Shown here piece after piece: positions 6,590 to 33,576 of a stretch of DNA of 64,000 nt (the stretch's first letter is position 1; each line of letters begins with the position of its first letter). The notes below the pieces were generated by a model. The model worked only from the letters and a program-made list of their open reading frames with translations, was not told the origin of the DNA and searched no databases. The stretch lies in the IMG/VR virus record IMGVR_UViG_3300045988_010208; one strand, 5' to 3'. Source of the DNA: a virus (Duplodnaviria; Heunggongvirae; Uroviricota; Caudoviricetes). A program made the position numbers and the translations under genes.

Positions 6590-6671
6590 CGGGGCGTATC
6601 TCAGCTGTCTTCTAAACAGCCGTTAACCGAGTAAGTGGAGTATGCGGGTTCGAGTCCTGCCGCCTCGACCA
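6590..6671 (+). tRNA. Atypical tRNA-like gene (anticodon TCT, Arg?), D-arm apparently truncated
   Basis: Acceptor CGGGGCG/CGCCTCG, T-arm GCGGGTTCGAGTCCTGC, CCA and stem-loop GCTGT/ACAGC with loop CTTCTAA are clear, but only ~7 nt lie between acceptor and anticodon stem. Confidence 0.45.
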
Positions 6672-6685
6672 ATTTTGGAGAAATC

Positions 6686-7033
6686 ATGAAAACTTGTATT
6701 AGGTGTAAACTTAGCAAGGATGAAAATGATTTCTACATGAAAGATGGTAGGAGAACTCATTCATACTGTAAAAAGTGTGTTAATGAGCAAACCATAGAAA
6801 GACAAAGAGCACTTAAACTCTCAGCTATTGAGTACAAAGGTGGGGTTTGTCATGATTGTGGTAAAAAGTATCATCCAGCAGTGTATGACTTCCATCATTT
6901 GAATCCTTCAGATAAAGATTTTAACATTGGTCATAGGAAAAGCCTTAAGTTCTCTCAAGAACTAAAAGATGAGCTTGACAAATGTGTTTTGCTATGTTCA
7001 AATTGCCATAGGGTAAGACATGCAAAGTATTAG
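6686..7033 (+). CDS. HNH endonuclease (zinc-binding), embedded in tRNA array
   Basis: ATG at 6686 preceded by GGAG; Cys pairs and HNH signature (DFHHLNP ... CSNCHRVRH). ORF-track start at 6635 lies inside the tRNA and is rejected. Confidence 0.7.
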   Translation: MKTCIRCKLSKDENDFYMKDGRRTHSYCKKCVNEQTIERQRALKLSAIEYKGGVCHDCGKKYHPAVYDFHHLNPSDKDFNIGHRKSLKFSQELKDELDKCVLLCSNCHRVRHAKY

Positions 7034-7170
7034 TTAGCAGATTACTTAGACGACCTAAGCGGGTCTTCCTGTAGGGAGGTGGTCTGTATCTCATGTTTTC
7101 CAGAACATGTAAATAATCTGAGAAGGGGCTTTACAGTGTTGAGATAATACGGTAAGCTTCGAATTATAGT

Positions 7171-7253
7171 ATGGGACGATGTTAAGACTCTAAGGCATGA
7201 GCAACGGCCTCCAAAACCGTTTCAAAGGGGTTCAACTCCTCCGTCCCATGCCA
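7171..7253 (+). tRNA. tRNA-Trp (anticodon CCA), atypical expanded D region
   Basis: Acceptor ATGGGAC/GTCCCAT perfect, T-arm AGGGGTTCAACTCCTCC, anticodon loop CTCCAAA, CCA; D region ~7 nt longer than canonical. Confidence 0.5.
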
Positions 7254-7266
7254 AAGTCTTATTAGG

Positions 7267-7354
7267 GGTAGGTAGCGGCTAATGGTAGCCAAACTGTCTT
7301 GAAAACAGTTGCCACTGTAGAGATACGGTGAGGGTTCGACTCCTTTACTTACCG
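7267..7354 (+). tRNA. tRNA-Ser (anticodon TGA), long variable arm, CCA not encoded
   Basis: Acceptor GGTAGGT/ACTTACC, anticodon stem ACTGT/ACAGT loop CTTGAAA, long variable arm, T-loop GGGTTCGACTCC. Confidence 0.65.
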
Positions 7355-7512
7355 CCTAATAAGATTTTAAAGCCAAGCTTCATTCGGATGTTGCTTTGGT
7401 ATCCCTCGTGTATTGTCGTACACACTGATAAAACACCTAGTAGGTGTCACGGAGAAGAGATAATATCAAGCTCTCCAAAGGTTCTAGTCACCGGATTAAA
7501 CAAGACTATGCA

Positions 7513-7533
7513 AAGACCAATTTAGGTCTTTTT
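7513..7533 (+). terminator. Hairpin with U-tract (AAGACC-AATTTA-GGTCTT-TTT)
   Basis: 6-bp stem, 6-nt loop, followed by T run; inside tRNA array. Confidence 0.4.
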
Positions 7534-7612
7534 AGAGGGCTTCTAAGGTTATTACAGCTTGTTGTGGAACCTTGTTGCTTAGGTTCTTAGAAGTTCTCTA
7601 AAAAGATTTAAT

Positions 7613-7690
7613 GGGAGATTGACGGTAATTGGTAAACCTACCATCCTTAGAAGTTGGTGTTTGAGGGTTCGAATCCCTTGTCTCCTACCA
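7613..7690 (+). tRNA. tRNA with anticodon TAG (Leu?), short variable arm
   Basis: Acceptor GGGAGAT/GTCTCCT, anticodon stem CCATC/GTTGG loop CTTAGAA, D-loop TAATTGGTAAA, T-loop GGGTTCGAATCCC, A73, CCA. Confidence 0.55.
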
Positions 7691-7697
7691 AATTAAT

Positions 7698-7773
7698 GCA
7701 GGTGTAGCAAAATGGTTATGCGGCTGACTCTTAATCAGTAAGACGATGGGTTCAATTCCCTCCACCTGTACCA
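7698..7773 (+). tRNA. tRNA-Lys (anticodon CTT), paralog of the TTT tRNA at 6019
   Basis: Near-identical backbone to 6019..6094 with anticodon loop CTCTTAA; acceptor GCAGGTG/CACCTGT, T-loop GGGTTCAATTCCC, CCA. Confidence 0.6.
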
Positions 7774-7779
7774 AATATT

Positions 7780-7855
7780 GGGGTCATAGTTTATATGGTT
7801 AAAATTCGAGTTTTGCAAACTTGGGAACTGAGTTCAATTCTCAGTGACTCCACCA
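7780..7855 (+). tRNA. tRNA-Ala (anticodon TGC)
   Basis: Acceptor GGGGTCA/TGACTCC with G3-U70 wobble (Ala identity element), anticodon loop TTTGCAA, T-arm CTGAGTTCAATTCTCAG, CCA. Confidence 0.7.
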
Positions 7856-7861
7856 ATTAGT

Positions 7862-7936
7862 GCATCCATAGTTTAAACGGGAAAATTACAGTCTTCCAAA
7901 CTGAGGTTGAGGGTTCGATTCCCTCTGGATGCTCCA
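7862..7936 (+). tRNA. tRNA-Gly (anticodon TCC)
   Basis: Acceptor GCATCCA/TGGATGC, anticodon loop CTTCCAA, T-arm GAGGGTTCGATTCCCTC, CCA. Confidence 0.7.
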
Positions 7937-7942
7937 AACAAT

Positions 7943-8019
7943 GCTGCTTTCGTATAATTGGCTATTACACATCCCTTGTAAGGATGGAAATGCAGGTTCG
8001 AGTCCTGTGAGCAGCACCA
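7943..8019 (+). tRNA. tRNA-Thr (anticodon TGT)
   Basis: Acceptor GCTGCTT/GAGCAGC, anticodon stem CATCC/GGATG loop CTTGTAA, T-arm GCAGGTTCGAGTCCTGT, CCA. Confidence 0.7.
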
Positions 8020-8022
8020 ATT

Positions 8023-8109
8023 CAGAGGTCAAGTGAAAGACCGCTGGTGTCAACTGAAGACCGTAACAAATTCCACGGAGTTGAGTTAGCGGCACAACTT
8101 CAGACCTCT
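8023..8109. repeat. Inverted-repeat-bounded spacer F (AGAGGTC ... GACCTCT) containing GAAGACCGT
   Basis: 7-bp inverted repeat encloses ~73 nt directly after tRNA-Thr; interior shares GAAGACCGT with elements B and D. Confidence 0.4.
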
Positions 8110-8114
8110 TTCAT

Positions 8115-8189
8115 ACTCGCTTAGTTTATATGGTAAAACATCACCCTTACAAGATGAAGAAAAAGGTTCAAGTCCTTTAGTGAGTACCA
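8115..8189 (+). tRNA. tRNA-Val (anticodon TAC)
   Basis: Acceptor ACTCGCT/AGTGAGT, anticodon loop CTTACAA, T-arm AAAGGTTCAAGTCCTTT, CCA. Confidence 0.6.
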
Positions 8190-8190
8190 T

Positions 8191-8268
8191 GTTCCAGTGT
8201 CCCAATTGGCAGAGGATGCAAGCTCAAACCTTGTACTAGTGACGGTTCGAATCCGTCTTGGAACACCA
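8191..8268 (+). tRNA. tRNA with anticodon CAA (Leu?), Leu-like D-arm, short variable arm
   Basis: Acceptor GTTCCAG/TTGGAAC, D-arm TCC-CAATTGGCAGA-GGA, anticodon stem GCAAG/CTTGT loop CTCAAAC, T-arm GACGGTTCGAATCCGTC, A73, CCA. Confidence 0.55.
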
Positions 8269-8273
8269 ATTTT

Positions 8274-8349
8274 GCAGGATTAGTTCAAATGGATAGAGCA
8301 ACAGTCTACGAAGCTGTTAATAGGGGTTCGAATCCCTTATCCTGCACCA
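8274..8349 (+). tRNA. tRNA-Arg (anticodon ACG)
   Basis: Acceptor GCAGGAT/ATCCTGC, anticodon stem ACAGT/GCTGT loop CTACGAA, T-loop GGGGTTCGAATCCC, CCA. Confidence 0.65.
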
Positions 8350-8368
8350 ATTTAAAGAGGCTATTTAG

Positions 8369-8926
8369 ATGAGATATTTGAAGTATGCTTCATGGATTTT
8401 CCTAGCTTTGTTAGACCCATTGGCAGCAACCTTAGCAGTTATCTTAGCACCTTTTGTAGTTCCATTCTATAGTGAGAAGAAAGGGCATCTACCTTTCGGA
8501 TTCAGATGGATGGAGACATATGACAACCCAATTGATGGTGATGAAGGTCACGTTAAACGATGGGCTAAGATTAGAAAGATTGGTAAGCTAGGTGTCTATT
8601 TGCAGAGAGTTGGATGGCTCTGGAGAAACAAAGCTTATAACTTCTCTTACCATGTGTTAGGAAGAGATATAAAAGATGTTACTAAGTGGAAAGGTAATAT
8701 CAACGTAAGCTCTGACCCTGAAGATAATCAGACAGGTTATCTCCTAATGTGGAACAGTAATGCTTGGGGATTATTCGCTTTTATCCCATCAATTAAAGTC
8801 TTTGGTAAACAATTCTACTGGAGAATTTATGTTGGGTGGAAACTAAAAAGTGTTGTCCCAGAAGAAAGAGCATTCTCAAGGGAAAGAGTTATGTTGGCAT
8901 TCTTTATTCATCCACTGAGAAAGTAA
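8369..8926 (+). CDS. Hypothetical membrane protein encoded within tRNA array
   Basis: 185-aa ORF with AGAGG upstream; hydrophobic N-terminus (WIFLALLDPLAATLAVILAPFVVPF). Confidence 0.5.
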   Translation: MRYLKYASWIFLALLDPLAATLAVILAPFVVPFYSEKKGHLPFGFRWMETYDNPIDGDEGHVKRWAKIRKIGKLGVYLQRVGWLWRNKAYNFSYHVLGRDIKDVTKWKGNINVSSDPEDNQTGYLLMWNSNAWGLFAFIPSIKVFGKQFYWRIYVGWKLKSVVPEERAFSRERVMLAFFIHPLRK

Positions 8927-8934
8927 AGATTTAA

Positions 8935-9010
8935 AGGGGATTAGTTTACAAGGTTAAAACCTCGGTCTTTGAAATCGAAGAAGTTGGTTCAATTCCAACA
9001 TCCCCCGCCA
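8935..9010 (+). tRNA. tRNA-Gln (anticodon TTG)
   Basis: Anticodon stem TCGGT/ATCGA loop CTTTGAA, T-arm GTTGGTTCAATTCCAAC, acceptor pairs with ATCCCCC, CCA. Confidence 0.6.
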
Positions 9011-9012
9011 AT

Positions 9013-9091
9013 GCTCCATTACTCCAATTGGCAGAGAGGCCAGACTTAAAATCTGTGTTATGTATCGGTTCGAATCCGATATGGAGTACCA
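9013..9091 (+). tRNA. tRNA with anticodon TAA (Leu?), Leu-like D-arm, short variable arm
   Basis: Acceptor GCTCCAT/ATGGAGT, D-arm CTC-CAATTGGCAGA-GAG, anticodon loop CTTAAAA, T-arm ATCGGTTCGAATCCGAT, A73, CCA. Confidence 0.55.
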
Positions 9092-9096
9092 AATTT

Positions 9097-9172
9097 AGCG
9101 GTATAGCATAACTGGCAATGCAGCAGTCTCTGAAGCTGTCCTATTAAGGTTCAAATCCTTATGCCGCTGCCA
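9097..9172 (+). tRNA. tRNA-Gln (anticodon CTG)
   Basis: Acceptor AGCGGTA/TGCCGCT, anticodon stem GCAGT/GCTGT loop CTCTGAA, T-arm TAAGGTTCAAATCCTTA, CCA. Confidence 0.6.
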
Positions 9173-9203
9173 CTTCTAAGGATTCTTACGAGAGTCCTTA
9201 AAT

Positions 9204-9279
9204 GTGGCCTTATCATAAATGGTAATGACCCATGCTGTGAACATGGTCTATACGGGTTCAACTCCCGTAGGTCACCCCA
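9204..9279 (+). tRNA. tRNA-His (anticodon GTG)
   Basis: Acceptor GTGGCCT/AGGTCAC, anticodon stem CCATG/CATGG loop CTGTGAA, T-arm ACGGGTTCAACTCCCGT, CCA. Confidence 0.7.
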
Positions 9280-9285
9280 ATTTAT

Positions 9286-9361
9286 AGTCCAAGTAGCTTA
9301 TATGGTTAAAGCGCGTGTCTGAAAAACATGAGAAGAGGGTTCAAATCCCACTGGACTACCA
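9286..9361 (+). tRNA. tRNA-Phe (anticodon GAA)
   Basis: Acceptor AGTCCAA/CTGGACT, anticodon stem CGTGT/ACATG loop CTGAAAA, T-loop GGGTTCAAATCCC, CCA. Confidence 0.65.
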
Positions 9362-9377
9362 ATTTCAAAGGTGCTTA

Positions 9378-10112
9378 ATGAAAGAGATGACAGAACAAGG
9401 TAAGGAGATTTTTAATCTCTTAAAAACCGGTAGAGGGTTTTCTAATCCCCTTATTACTGGTGCAGCAGTTCTAGGTGGAACCGTAGCTGCCTCTACATCA
9501 CTTGTAAGCTCTATTAGCTCTGTAACAGACCCTACAATGAAGGAGAAGCTTGTTGCTGCTGGACTCACAACAGTCCTTCTAAACAGCTTTACAACAAGCC
9601 TGACAAGCACTACAGCAACTACTAAGACCCTAACAGACTATGGTCAAAAATCTATTGATGAGTTTTCATCACGTATGCAGGTAGCAAAGGGGTATTCCAA
9701 TGTTATGGGTGCAGCAGGAGAACAAGTTGGTTGTACACCATTTAGTGGTATTATGGGTGTTGCTACAGAGTATGGCCAGCAAGCTATTGACACGATTAAC
9801 AGCACACTAGACAGTGTTAACGGTGTGTTAAGTGACTTACAAGACGCTATTGATAAGGGTCTTGGTACTGTTTCTGATTTAGCTAATCAGGCTGTTAGTA
9901 AGATTAATGAAGGTATCTCAAAGATTACAGCTTATGCAGATGAAGTTGTGCAGATGATTGAAGAAGAAGCTGCCCTTATTGCAGAGTACCTTAAAACGAA
10001 TATCAATGGGTTCTTAGCAGGTATCTTACCAGACTGGTTTGATGATGCTTGCAAAACTGGTGTAATCGACACTATTGCAACACCAGAAATGAAGAACGCA
10101 TTACAGAAATAA
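9378..10112 (+). CDS. Hypothetical Ser/Thr-rich protein encoded within tRNA array
   Basis: ORF-track frame 9315..10112; start placed at first ATG after the upstream tRNA (MKEMTEQ...); Ser/Thr/Ala-rich, coiled-coil-like C-terminus. Confidence 0.5.
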   Translation: MKEMTEQGKEIFNLLKTGRGFSNPLITGAAVLGGTVAASTSLVSSISSVTDPTMKEKLVAAGLTTVLLNSFTTSLTSTTATTKTLTDYGQKSIDEFSSRMQVAKGYSNVMGAAGEQVGCTPFSGIMGVATEYGQQAIDTINSTLDSVNGVLSDLQDAIDKGLGTVSDLANQAVSKINEGISKITAYADEVVQMIEEEAALIAEYLKTNINGFLAGILPDWFDDACKTGVIDTIATPEMKNALQK

Positions 10113-10113
10113 T

Positions 10114-10206
10114 GGAAGATTAACCCTAAAAGGTAAGGGAGCAGTTTGCTAAACTGCCAGTAGCTGAGAAATCGGTGTACCAGTTCAAGTCTGGTATCTT
10201 CCTCCA
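10114..10206 (+). tRNA. tRNA-Ser (anticodon GCT), long variable arm
   Basis: 93 nt; acceptor GGAAGAT/ATCTTCC, anticodon stem GCAGT/ACTGC loop TTGCTAA, long variable arm, T-arm ACCAGTTCAAGTCTGGT, CCA. Confidence 0.7.
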
Positions 10207-10210
10207 ATTT

Positions 10211-10286
10211 GAATCCGTGACAGAAATGGCTATGTGCCTGTCTGCAAAACAGGTTTATAAGGGTTCGAGTCCCTTCGGATTCTCCA
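10211..10286 (+). tRNA. tRNA-Cys (anticodon GCA)
   Basis: Acceptor GAATCCG/CGGATTC, anticodon stem CCTGT/ACAGG loop CTGCAAA, T-arm AAGGGTTCGAGTCCCTT, CCA. Confidence 0.7.
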
Positions 10287-10448: not shown

Positions 10449-10473
10449 GACGGTCTCTGTGCCGTCTTTTTTT
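10449..10473 (+). terminator. Rho-independent terminator (GACGG-loop-CCGTC + T7)
   Basis: 5-bp GC-rich stem, 8-nt loop, seven Ts. Confidence 0.6.
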
Positions 10474-31224: not shown

Positions 31225-33576
31225 ATGGCAGATTACAAGTTGAGTGAATTAAACTCAATCGATACAATCCGTTCAGATGACCTTCTTCATGTCAGGGTTA
31301 AAAAGAGACCTGAAATGCTGGGTGATGAAGACCGTCGAATGACCTATCAAGATTTCTTAGCATCTTTTAAGCTTGAAAGATTTGTTCAGATTGCTGGTAG
31401 CACTATGACGGGTGACTTAGGGATTGTTAAGTTACTTTATGGTGGTAAGGCAGTCTTTGACCCTACAGGCTCTTCTGAGATTAATATTGGGGATGTTTTA
31501 AAGACTTTTAAAATTAACGCAAATGGTCTTAAACTAACTATTGCAGATGCTTCGAGGTCAGCAACTGTTTATCATACTCTGAATAAACCAAGTCCTAATG
31601 AACTTGGGATGAGAACTAATGAAGAGAATGATGCAAGATATGCAAAACTGGCTAACTCGAATACGTTTAAAGCCAAGCAAACTATTACATCGAATGGTGA
31701 GATTTTAACGCTAGTCACCCCTGCGGAGGCGAGTTCAGCGTACTGTGCCCTTGTAGGTAGAGACGCGAGTAATGAAAAGAATTGGGCTATTGGGAACCTA
31801 ATTAGAGGCAGCTTTGATGTTCAAATCAAGAGTAGACAAGGTTCCATCCTCACTCTAGGTACAACTGTAACGATTAATAAGACCCTTGCTGTTGTTGGTC
31901 AGGTCAAACCTTCTGACTTCTCTAACTTAGATGCTAGATACTTTACTCAGACAGTTGCTAATCAGAGATTTGCACAGTTAGCTGGCAATAACACATTTAG
32001 TGGTTCTAATATTTTCACTAATAATTTTGTTATTAAGAAGAATGCTAATGCTATTACTATTCAAAATGTAGATACAACTACGGCTTTGTATATCCAAGCA
32101 AGAAAATCAGATGGAGCTAATAAGTGGTACATTGGCAATGACGGTGATGAGAGTATTGTAAACATCTATAACTATTTAGCAAAAACACAAATCTCACTAG
32201 GCAACACCATTACTATGAGCAAAACAGTCCAAATTGGTGGTCAAGTTCAACCTTCTGATTGGACTAACATTGACTCTAGATATATTCCGGCAGCAACATT
32301 AAGTACAATTGCAAGAACTAATGCACAAAATACTTTTAATGGTGTACAGAAAGTTGTTACTGATGCTGAAGCCCTAATTGTGAAAAACTATACTCAGAAC
32401 AGACCATTGTATATCCGTGGTGTGGACACTGCTAATGTGTCAAGGTGGTGGGTAGGTGTTGGTGGGGCAGATACTAATGATGTAACACTAAATAACAGTT
32501 TTTCTGGCACTCAGTTAGTTTTAGGTAACTCATCTGCAAGTATCAATAAGACATTAACCCTAGCAGGGCAGATTCAACCCTCAGATTTCTCTAACTTAGA
32601 TGCCAGATACTTTACTCAATCAGCAGCTAATCAGGAATTTATGTATGCAGGTTCCACAGGTACTGGTAGTGAAGTAGGTGATAGTGATGGCATTGCTTGG
32701 AATGCTAAAACTGGTCTGTATAATGTTACAGGTTATGGTGGAGGCTCAACACAACTTGTTTTCCAAATGTATCAGGGTGCAAGCTCTACTCCCTCTGCTC
32801 AATTAAAATTCAACTACAGGAATGGGGGTTTTTGGTATAGGTCATCAAGGGATGGTTTTGGTTTTGAAGAGGACTTCACACAAATTTATACAGAGAAGTA
32901 TAAACCAACTCCTTCAGCTATTGGTGCATACACTAAAGCAGAGACTGACCAGAAGATTGCAGAAGCGATTAGTGACTCTACAGACCTGAATAAAATCTAT
33001 CCAGTAGGGATTGTGACATGGTTTAACAGTAATGTTAACCCTAATACAGCACTCCCTGGGTTAACTTGGACGTATCTGAACAATGGTGTTGGTAGAACTA
33101 TTAGAATTGCAGCAGCAAACGGTTCAGATGTTGCTACAACTGGTGGTTCAGATTCTGTAACGTTATCTGTTGGTAACTTACCTTCACACACTCATAGCTT
33201 CTCTGCGACTACTTCATCATTTGACTATGGTACTAAAACCACTAACACTACTGGTGCTCACACCCACTCAGTGAGTGGTTCTACTAACAACACTGGTGCT
33301 CATACACATACAGTTGGTGGTCGTTATGGTGGTGACTCTATCGGTGGTAAACAACGTGTTCAGGTATCTGGTACAGAACAGGTATCTAGCTCTGCTGGTG
33401 CTCACGCTCACACTGTATCTGGTACTGCTGCCTCTAACGGAAACCATGCTCACACTGTTGGTATTGGTGCTCACAGTCATACAGTTAGTGGTAACACTGG
33501 TGGTACAGGTTCTGGTTCAGCATTTAGTGTAACTAACCAGTTCTATAAGCTGATGGCTTGGGTAAGAACTGCTTAA
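31225..33576 (+). CDS. Long tail fibre protein with three internal repeats and His-box C-terminus shared with 30007..31173
   Basis: 783 aa; three ~100-aa repeats with GQ(V/I)(K/Q)PSD(F/W)(S/T)N(L/I)D(A/S)RY; C-terminal ~100 aa near-identical in protein to the tip of the preceding fibre. Confidence 0.7.
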   Translation: MADYKLSELNSIDTIRSDDLLHVRVKKRPEMLGDEDRRMTYQDFLASFKLERFVQIAGSTMTGDLGIVKLLYGGKAVFDPTGSSEINIGDVLKTFKINANGLKLTIADASRSATVYHTLNKPSPNELGMRTNEENDARYAKLANSNTFKAKQTITSNGEILTLVTPAEASSAYCALVGRDASNEKNWAIGNLIRGSFDVQIKSRQGSILTLGTTVTINKTLAVVGQVKPSDFSNLDARYFTQTVANQRFAQLAGNNTFSGSNIFTNNFVIKKNANAITIQNVDTTTALYIQARKSDGANKWYIGNDGDESIVNIYNYLAKTQISLGNTITMSKTVQIGGQVQPSDWTNIDSRYIPAATLSTIARTNAQNTFNGVQKVVTDAEALIVKNYTQNRPLYIRGVDTANVSRWWVGVGGADTNDVTLNNSFSGTQLVLGNSSASINKTLTLAGQIQPSDFSNLDARYFTQSAANQEFMYAGSTGTGSEVGDSDGIAWNAKTGLYNVTGYGGGSTQLVFQMYQGASSTPSAQLKFNYRNGGFWYRSSRDGFGFEEDFTQIYTEKYKPTPSAIGAYTKAETDQKIAEAISDSTDLNKIYPVGIVTWFNSNVNPNTALPGLTWTYLNNGVGRTIRIAAANGSDVATTGGSDSVTLSVGNLPSHTHSFSATTSSFDYGTKTTNTTGAHTHSVSGSTNNTGAHTHTVGGRYGGDSIGGKQRVQVSGTEQVSSSAGAHAHTVSGTAASNGNHAHTVGIGAHSHTVSGNTGGTGSGSAFSVTNQFYKLMAWVRTA

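Follow-up and report, generated by a model that had tools for sequence, protein, structure and literature searches.

The window analysed here is a stretch of 64,000 nucleotides (nt) recorded in IMG/VR as IMGVR_UViG_3300045988_010208, and it was found to derive from a Felix O1-like myovirus (Ounavirinae) infecting Salmonella/E. coli. It carries three transfer RNA (tRNA) genes for leucine, with the anticodons UAG, CAA and UAA, which have only a short variable loop where a long variable arm is normally expected in bacteria. These three short-arm tRNA-Leu genes were confirmed as a real feature. The short-arm leucine cloverleaf did not arise by chance: phage records contain it by the hundreds, and its compensatory covariation is strong. 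The best explanation, to which a probability of roughly 80% was given, is that the genes specify functional type I tRNA-Leu which would be charged by the host leucyl-tRNA synthetase (LeuRS) through an identity set independent of the arm. The region shared 97-98% identity with Salmonella phage Felix O1 and with some 300 relatives, in which the genes are already annotated as tRNA-Leu. The proposal in the initial annotation that the phage encodes Leu tRNAs of unusual architecture was upheld, but it is only by comparison with the enterobacterial host that their structure is unusual, and the genes had been annotated before.

ARAGORN placed the three genes at exactly the positions and with the anticodons first proposed, calling them Leu(tag), Leu(caa) and Leu(taa) with no differing anticodon or isotype, and all three scored above the gathering threshold of 29 bits with the Rfam tRNA covariance model RF00005 (Table 1). 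The cloverleaf parse reproduced the 5-7 nt variable regions of the initial annotation and the discriminator A73 in each gene. The variable loops were unpaired and well short of a class II arm, which exceeds 10 nt and forms a stem-loop; each gene combined a Leu anticodon, a short unpaired variable loop and a Leu-like body, the features that define a natural type I tRNA-Leu. The two tRNA-Ser and the one tRNA-Tyr of the same array, used as internal comparators, were long-armed as had been stated. The anticodon loops were 7 nt long with U33 in all three genes and were unambiguous in both ARAGORN and the Rfam model. A Leu-type D-arm with a 3-bp stem, claimed for all three genes, was found with an 11-nt loop in tRNA-Leu(CAA) (TCC-CAATTGGCAGA-GGA) and tRNA-Leu(UAA) (CTC-CAATTGGCAGA-GAG). 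In tRNA-Leu(UAG) it was present only approximately, with one extra nucleotide and one C.T stem mismatch (...CGG T AATTGG TAA A CCT), and the anticodon stem of this gene (CCATC/GTTGG) contained a U.U mismatch.

Table 1. Coordinates of the leucine tRNA genes, the array and neighbouring features in the window.
Feature	Position	Strand	Call or score	Details
tRNA-Leu(UAG), type I, 78 nt	7613-7690	+	ARAGORN; Rfam tRNA 40.0 bits	anticodon 7648-7650; anticodon arm 7641-7657; anticodon loop 7646-7652; variable loop TGTTT (5 nt) 7658-7662; A73 7687; CCA 7688-7690
tRNA-Leu(CAA), type I, 78 nt	8191-8268	+	ARAGORN; Rfam tRNA 42.3 bits	anticodon 8225-8227; variable loop ACTAGT (6 nt) 8235-8240; A73 8265; CCA 8266-8268
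tRNA-Leu(UAA), type I, 79 nt	9013-9091	+	ARAGORN; Rfam tRNA 47.5 bits	anticodon 9047-9049; variable loop GTTATGT (7 nt) 9057-9063; A73 9088; CCA 9089-9091
Array of 25 co-oriented tRNA genes	4864-10286	+	ARAGORN
tRNA-Tyr(GUA), class II	5419-5506	+	ARAGORN; below Rfam gathering score	variable arm 15 nt; internal comparator
tRNA-Ser(UGA), class II	7267-7356	+	ARAGORN; Rfam 33.2 bits	variable arm 20 nt; internal comparator
tRNA-Ser(GCU), class II	10114-10206	+	ARAGORN; Rfam 46.2 bits	variable arm 21 nt; internal comparator
tRNA-Met(cat)	5116-5192		ARAGORN; below Rfam gathering score
Spacer between tRNA-Gly and tRNA-Thr	7936-7943			tRNAs 6 nt apart
Open reading frame upstream of the array	3283-4698	+	DUF2828 and DUF7788 matches
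DUF7338 protein, 185 aa	8369-8926	+		between tRNA-Arg(ACG) and tRNA-Gln(UUG)
Promoter-like site	4717-4745			weak hint
Promoter-like site	4808-4837			weak hint
Terminator-like site	10449-10466			weak hint

The identity set of E. coli tRNA-Leu comprises A73, A14 together with U8, the A15-U48 Levitt pair, the placement of G18G19, A20a and the pairs between D-loop and T-loop (PMC9976931, PMC6614811), and both the long arm and the anticodon are dispensable for leucine identity (PMC9976931). T8, A14, A15 and T48, the last nucleotide of the variable loop, were located by the cloverleaf parse in all three window tRNAs. G18G19 in the E. coli register and A20a were also present in the three, the D-arm of the UAG gene conforming only approximately, and the D-loop register of the CAA and UAA genes was the same as in E. 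coli GCG-GAATTGGTAGA-CGC. All three had the T-loop TTCGAAT, which makes the G18:U55, G19:C56 and U54:A58 contacts available. The E. coli genes leuW (UAG), leuX (CAA) and leuZ (UAA) share with the phage genes the anticodons, A73, U8-A14 and A15-U48, the 3-bp D-stem with an 11-nt loop of the form xAAUUGGyAxA, G1.U72 or G1-C72 and a TTCRANT-type T-loop. The two sets differed in length, the E. coli tRNAs measuring 85-87 nt, of which about 13-15 nt form the variable stem-loop, and the phage tRNAs 78-79 nt with 5-7 unpaired nucleotides, and their stems had diverged. The alignment with leuW, leuX, leuZ and the tRNA-Leu of T4 and T5 was colinear, and its sole gap, of 8-10 nt, corresponded to the variable arm. 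Since all the elements read by LeuRS are retained, the arm would be dispensable without loss of identity.

No LeuRS was found among the six window open reading frames (ORFs) of at least 650 amino acids (aa) and two ORFs at the array, the 64-kb window leaving approximately 23 kb of the phage outside. The ORFs checked encoded a tape measure protein, a tail fibre, DNA polymerase A, a primase-helicase, two ribonucleotide reductases and two DUF proteins. The host LeuRS is therefore presumed to be the charging enzyme. The long arm is required by seryl-tRNA synthetase (SerRS) and bacterial tyrosyl-tRNA synthetase (TyrRS) but not by E. coli LeuRS, which would account for the confinement of arm loss to leucine in this array.

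Covariation was assessed on 99 type I Leu tRNAs, 91 from viral metagenome contigs (from among the matches listed) and 8 from the window, Felix O1, mistaenkt, M7 and BF23. Of the helix cells in this alignment, 98.4% paired, compared with 36-46% with slid partners, and double changes were found in 20 of 20 helix pairs. The A15:U48 pair was kept in 97 of the 99 tRNAs. A G1.U72 wobble (alignment columns 1 and 76) was also seen in 45/99, including the window UAG and UAA genes, and can be regarded as another retained Leu-like trait because E. coli leuZ and leuU have the same pair.

A scan of IMG/VR with a pattern specific for short-arm Leu tRNAs gave 120 contigs among the matches listed, and ARAGORN was run on each. 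These contigs contained 158 short and 49 long tRNA-Leu, and within the same listed matches the long arm was found in 95/96 tRNA-Ser and 33/36 tRNA-Tyr. The short Leu tRNAs of these matches had A73, U8 and U48 in 151/158 each and A14A15 in 142/158. A 19-nt D-arm segment was kept in them and likewise in the long Leu tRNAs standing beside them. Samples chosen independently of leucine were obtained by taking Arg(TCT), Thr(TGT) and Asn(GTT) tRNAs with the GGTTCGAATCC T-arm as anchors in viral contigs. Among the matches listed for these anchors 49/158 tRNA-Leu were short-armed, about a third, a fraction that is approximate and includes a few doubtful ARAGORN 'Leu' calls; taken separately, the first sample had 5/42 and the other two 44/116. 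Short arms were found in none of 94 tRNA-Ser and in 5/67 tRNA-Tyr of the same listed contigs. The short-arm form appears to be common in phages, and this broader pattern seems to have received little description. The literature searched contained no account of phage tRNA-Leu with a short arm, which does not prove that none exists.

In the prokaryotic genome scan, many Actinomycetota among the matches listed had a solitary type I tRNA-Leu, (UAA) or (CAA), that was nearly invariant and had the consensus GCCCCCrTAGCCCAATTGGCAGAGGC...CAGTGTCGGTTCGAGTCCGAC; they included Nocardia, Mycobacterium, Gordonia, Rhodococcus, Arthrobacter, Rothia and Bifidobacterium. The same listed matches included type I Leu genes from cyanobacteria, Acidobacteriota and Myxococcota that lie within dense arrays of 10-27 tRNAs. 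Among the publications searched, one alone dealt with a type I tRNA-Leu from bacteria, that of Fan et al. 2019 (PMC6614811). It described the tRNA-Leu(CAA) of S. coelicolor, which occurs naturally and has a variable loop of 5 nt. The actinobacterial form is far more widespread than this single Streptomyces case. The D-arm motif CCCAATTGGCAGAGG and variable loops of the xCAGT type are common to the actinobacterial genes and the window CAA and UAA genes, although in the latter the loops are 6 and 7 nt instead of the 5 nt of S. coelicolor. The Streptomyces tRNA is charged by ScoLeuRS, which has an adapted leucine-specific domain (PMC6614811), whereas the window tRNAs must use an enterobacterial LeuRS, of the E. 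coli/Salmonella type. The animal mitochondrial tRNA-Leu(UUR) is another type I form, with A73 and A14 as identity elements (PMC9976931), but it has a dedicated mitochondrial LeuRS and a floppy, reduced core and is evolutionarily unlinked to the phage genes. In engineered armless variants of E. coli tRNA-Leu, the E. coli LeuRS (EcLeuRS) needs A73 and the tertiary core and not the long arm, according to the summary in PMC9976931 of the studies by Larkin et al. 2002, Asahara et al. 1993 and 1998, and Tocchini-Valentini et al. 2000. Those variants were laboratory constructs, in contrast to the phage genes, which are natural, conserved and present in three isoacceptors.

Within the Ounavirinae, only type I Leu tRNAs were found in every genus examined (Felixounavirus, Suspvirus and Kolesnikvirus). 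The short-arm set was UAG, CAA and UAA in both Felix O1 and Suspvirus mistaenkt, and CAA, AAG and UAA in the Kolesnikvirus Erwinia phage M7. Homologues of tRNA-Leu(CAA) occupied the same array place in Felix O1 and mistaenkt, and the window sequence of tRNA-Leu(UAA) recurred unchanged in both of these phages. The window UAG allele was present at 100% identity in 71 GenBank phage records, among them those of the Mooglevirus phages Sf15 and Mordin. The Felix O1 UAG allele (Felix O1 3914-3991) had the perfectly paired anticodon stem TCTCG/CGAGA in place of that of the window; the stem was thus wholly different between the two despite a phage identity of about 97%. Both UAG alleles were widespread, with 71 records matching the window allele at 99% identity or more and many others at 88-90%.

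The other possibility raised in the initial annotation, a wrong anticodon phasing for all three genes, was not borne out, as the two predictors concurred on the anticodons with canonical 7-nt loops and Leu was the top isotype for the Sf14 counterparts. The isotype scores were those of the matching tRNAs of phage Sf14, which has the same gene order, and not of this window: tRNAscan-SE gave Leu as the highest isotype for all three, with 67.4, 49.1 and 60.2 (PMC12482277).

A close relative was tRNAL1 of phage BF23, a T5-like phage of the unrelated family Demerecviridae, whose Leu(UAG) gene (AJ604530) is type I, 77 nt long and 84% identical to the window UAG gene. The T-arm and anticodon loop of the two were identical and the acceptor stem differed by compensatory changes, and BF23 had a clean 3-bp D-stem without the extra D-arm nucleotide of the window gene. 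A 77-nt type I tRNA-Leu(UAG) at this same 84% identity was found in T5-like phages (BF23, DT57C and VEc33 among them) and in Yersinia phage phiR2-01. In T5 an 85-nt class II Leu(UAG) (31624-31708) stands at the array place of the BF23 type I gene (8997-9073), which in both arrays is downstream of tRNA-Ala(UGC). The BF23 gene is nearer to the Felix O1-type gene (84%) than to that of T5, which suggests an exchange of tRNA genes between unrelated phage families.

Evidence on function came from the suppressor record and from codon usage. The GenBank entry AJ604530 states that BF23 tRNAL1 with CUA in place of its anticodon yields an 'effective amber suppressor', which implies that the BF23 tRNA is made, charged and used in E. 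coli. In the window ORFs (39% GC) the Leu codon shares were TTA 27%, CTT 26%, CTG 15%, TTG 13%, CTA 12% and CTC 7%. CTG makes up about half of the Leu codons of E. coli. The phage overuses TTA, CTA and CTT relative to the host, and TTG is near the host level. Judged from phage Leu codon usage against the CTG bias of E. coli, the three anticodons cover the codons of host minor isoacceptors.

Two details of the anticodon loops were also noted. The loop of tRNA-Leu(UAG), CTTAGAA, has A37 and that of E. coli leuW, TTTAGGT, has G37, the m1G37 site in CUN-reading tRNAs. The tRNA-Leu(CAA) loop, CTCAAAC, has C38, an interruption of the A36-A37-A38 motif that serves for i6A37 and TrmL modification.

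From these comparisons we infer leucylation by the host LeuRS and a decoding role of the three tRNAs. In the proposed mechanism the three Leu tRNAs would be transcribed along with their array neighbours, and host RNase P and 3' processing enzymes would trim them, their CCA end being already encoded. The host LeuRS would then read A73 and the shape of the elbow and core, namely U8-A14, A15-U48, G18G19 in a Leu-type D-arm, A20a and the D-loop/T-loop contacts, and would read neither the anticodon nor a long arm. The charged tRNAs may supplement decoding of TTA, TTG and CTA/CTN, which are read in the host by minor Leu isoacceptors.

Several observations weigh against this reading. E. coli LeuRS failed in vitro on the S. 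coelicolor type I tRNA-Leu(CAA), it has been described as charging type II tRNA-Leu only, and its C-terminal domain touches the arm nucleotides 47f-47i in the crystal (PMC6614811). The UAG gene is the weakest member of the set, with its non-canonical D-arm and the mismatch in its anticodon stem; the Leu score of its Sf14 counterpart is only narrowly above those of Ile2 and Lys (PMC12482277), and some pipelines call it or its homologues 'tRNA-OTHER' or 'Pseudo', as in MK965969, where it is named 'tRNA-OTHER' and marked as a pseudogene, while some records omit it. Folding z-scores of the three tRNAs and two homologues were between -0.3 and -1.6 and the minimum-energy fold was sometimes not a cloverleaf; because folding of AT-rich tRNAs without modifications gives no useful information, weight was placed on covariation and the covariance model instead. 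AJ604530 is silent on the amino acid inserted by the suppressor, and aminoacylation or tRNA-seq data for Felix O1-like phages were not found in the literature searched. The three conserved genes and the BF23 suppressor nevertheless argue that suitable type I substrates may be accepted in vivo.

A possible though improbable extension, compatible with charging by the host LeuRS, is that the arm was shed as a counter-defence against effectors acting on class II variable arms, such as Septu/PtuAB-like nucleases or AbiEii/MenT-like nucleotidyltransferases, so that armless tRNA-Leu would be spared and Leu codons would still be decoded in the infected cell. Septu and retron-Eco7 cut tRNA-Tyr's variable loop and AbiEii appears to favour class II tRNAs; type I Leu genes were also enriched in phages and mobile tRNA arrays, and the type I and class II Leu(UAG) genes at one array place in BF23-type and T5-type phages would fit such a history. 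If this were true, natural type I tRNA-Leu would be an efficient substrate of enterobacterial LeuRS in vivo, at odds with the current in vitro claim. However, no effector on the tRNA-Leu variable arm in Enterobacteria was found in the literature searched, and we know of no defence system that targets it there. The same form is also an ordinary chromosomal gene in many Actinomycetota, and neutral decay equally predicts loss of the arm in the sole class II tRNA whose synthetase does not need it.

It is very improbable that the three tRNAs are not aminoacylated by enterobacterial LeuRS and are instead decaying pseudo-tRNAs or tRNA-like decoys, processing signals or regulators. The inactivity of EcLeuRS on the Streptomyces tRNA, the 'Pseudo' and 'OTHER' labels of the UAG family and the stem mismatches of the UAG gene would agree with such a view, but the sequences are strictly conserved across genera and the stem changes are fully compensatory, both between the Felix O1 and window anticodon stems and in the 99-sequence alignment. 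A73, A15-U48 and the Leu anticodons are retained, the BF23 homologue is an amber suppressor and the anticodons fit codons in heavy phage use. Hardly credible is a further alternative, that the anticodons are mis-phased or that the tRNAs belong to another isotype, charged by another synthetase and recoding Leu codons. Type I architecture is that of most non-Leu tRNAs and the Ile2, Lys and Arg scores of the Sf14 UAG tRNA lie close below Leu; yet both predictors place the 7-nt anticodon loops with U33 without ambiguity, the Ala determinant G3:U70 is absent from all three genes, as is the long arm required for Ser, and the anticodon bases read by most other synthetases are not present. The D-arm and A15-U48 are moreover Leu-specific and shared with class II Leu tRNAs of the same viral contigs.

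Type I tRNA-Leu is already known from mitochondria and Streptomyces, and the novelty here is the enterobacterial phage context. Textbooks and a recent primary paper describe bacterial tRNA-Leu as class II and E. coli LeuRS as charging that class only, and the three conserved armless genes provide natural substrates on which enterobacterial LeuRS can be tested with type I tRNA-Leu. The armless form also explains the 'pseudo' and 'other' labels given by some annotation pipelines, and it opens a testable link to defence systems acting on class II variable arms. For synthetic biology the genes offer compact natural Leu tRNA scaffolds, a BF23 relative having already served as an amber suppressor in E. 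coli.

Nearly all tRNAs of the array encoded CCA and many were separated by spacers of just 1-8 nt; tRNA-Leu(CAA) started 1 nt past tRNA-Val, and tRNA-Leu(UAA) had tRNA-Gln(UUG) 2 nt upstream and tRNA-Gln(CUG) 5 nt downstream. From the tight spacing and the encoded CCA, the array tRNAs are presumably made as multi-tRNA precursors. The tRNA-Ser(UGA) gene alone in the array ended in CC, without a full encoded CCA. The Met(cat) and Tyr(gta) genes were called by ARAGORN below the Rfam tRNA gathering score, and the Tyr and His tRNAs of Felix O1 are flagged as pseudogenes in RefSeq. The promoter-like and terminator-like sites flanking the array are weak hints, and the promoter scan found 15 promoter-like sites compared with 14.4 expected by chance from shuffled sequence, which is no excess.

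The ORF directly upstream of the array is annotated in Felix O1 as 'RNA-binding protein', and from its location beside the tRNA genes it may help to handle RNA or tRNA. Inside the array, the DUF7338 gene showed partial DNA identity of about 70% to large T4-like and other Klebsiella, Salmonella and Enterobacter phages. HNH endonuclease ORFs interrupt the array of Felix O1, for example between Gly and Thr (Felix O1 4252-4665), and were missing from the window at the corresponding spacer.

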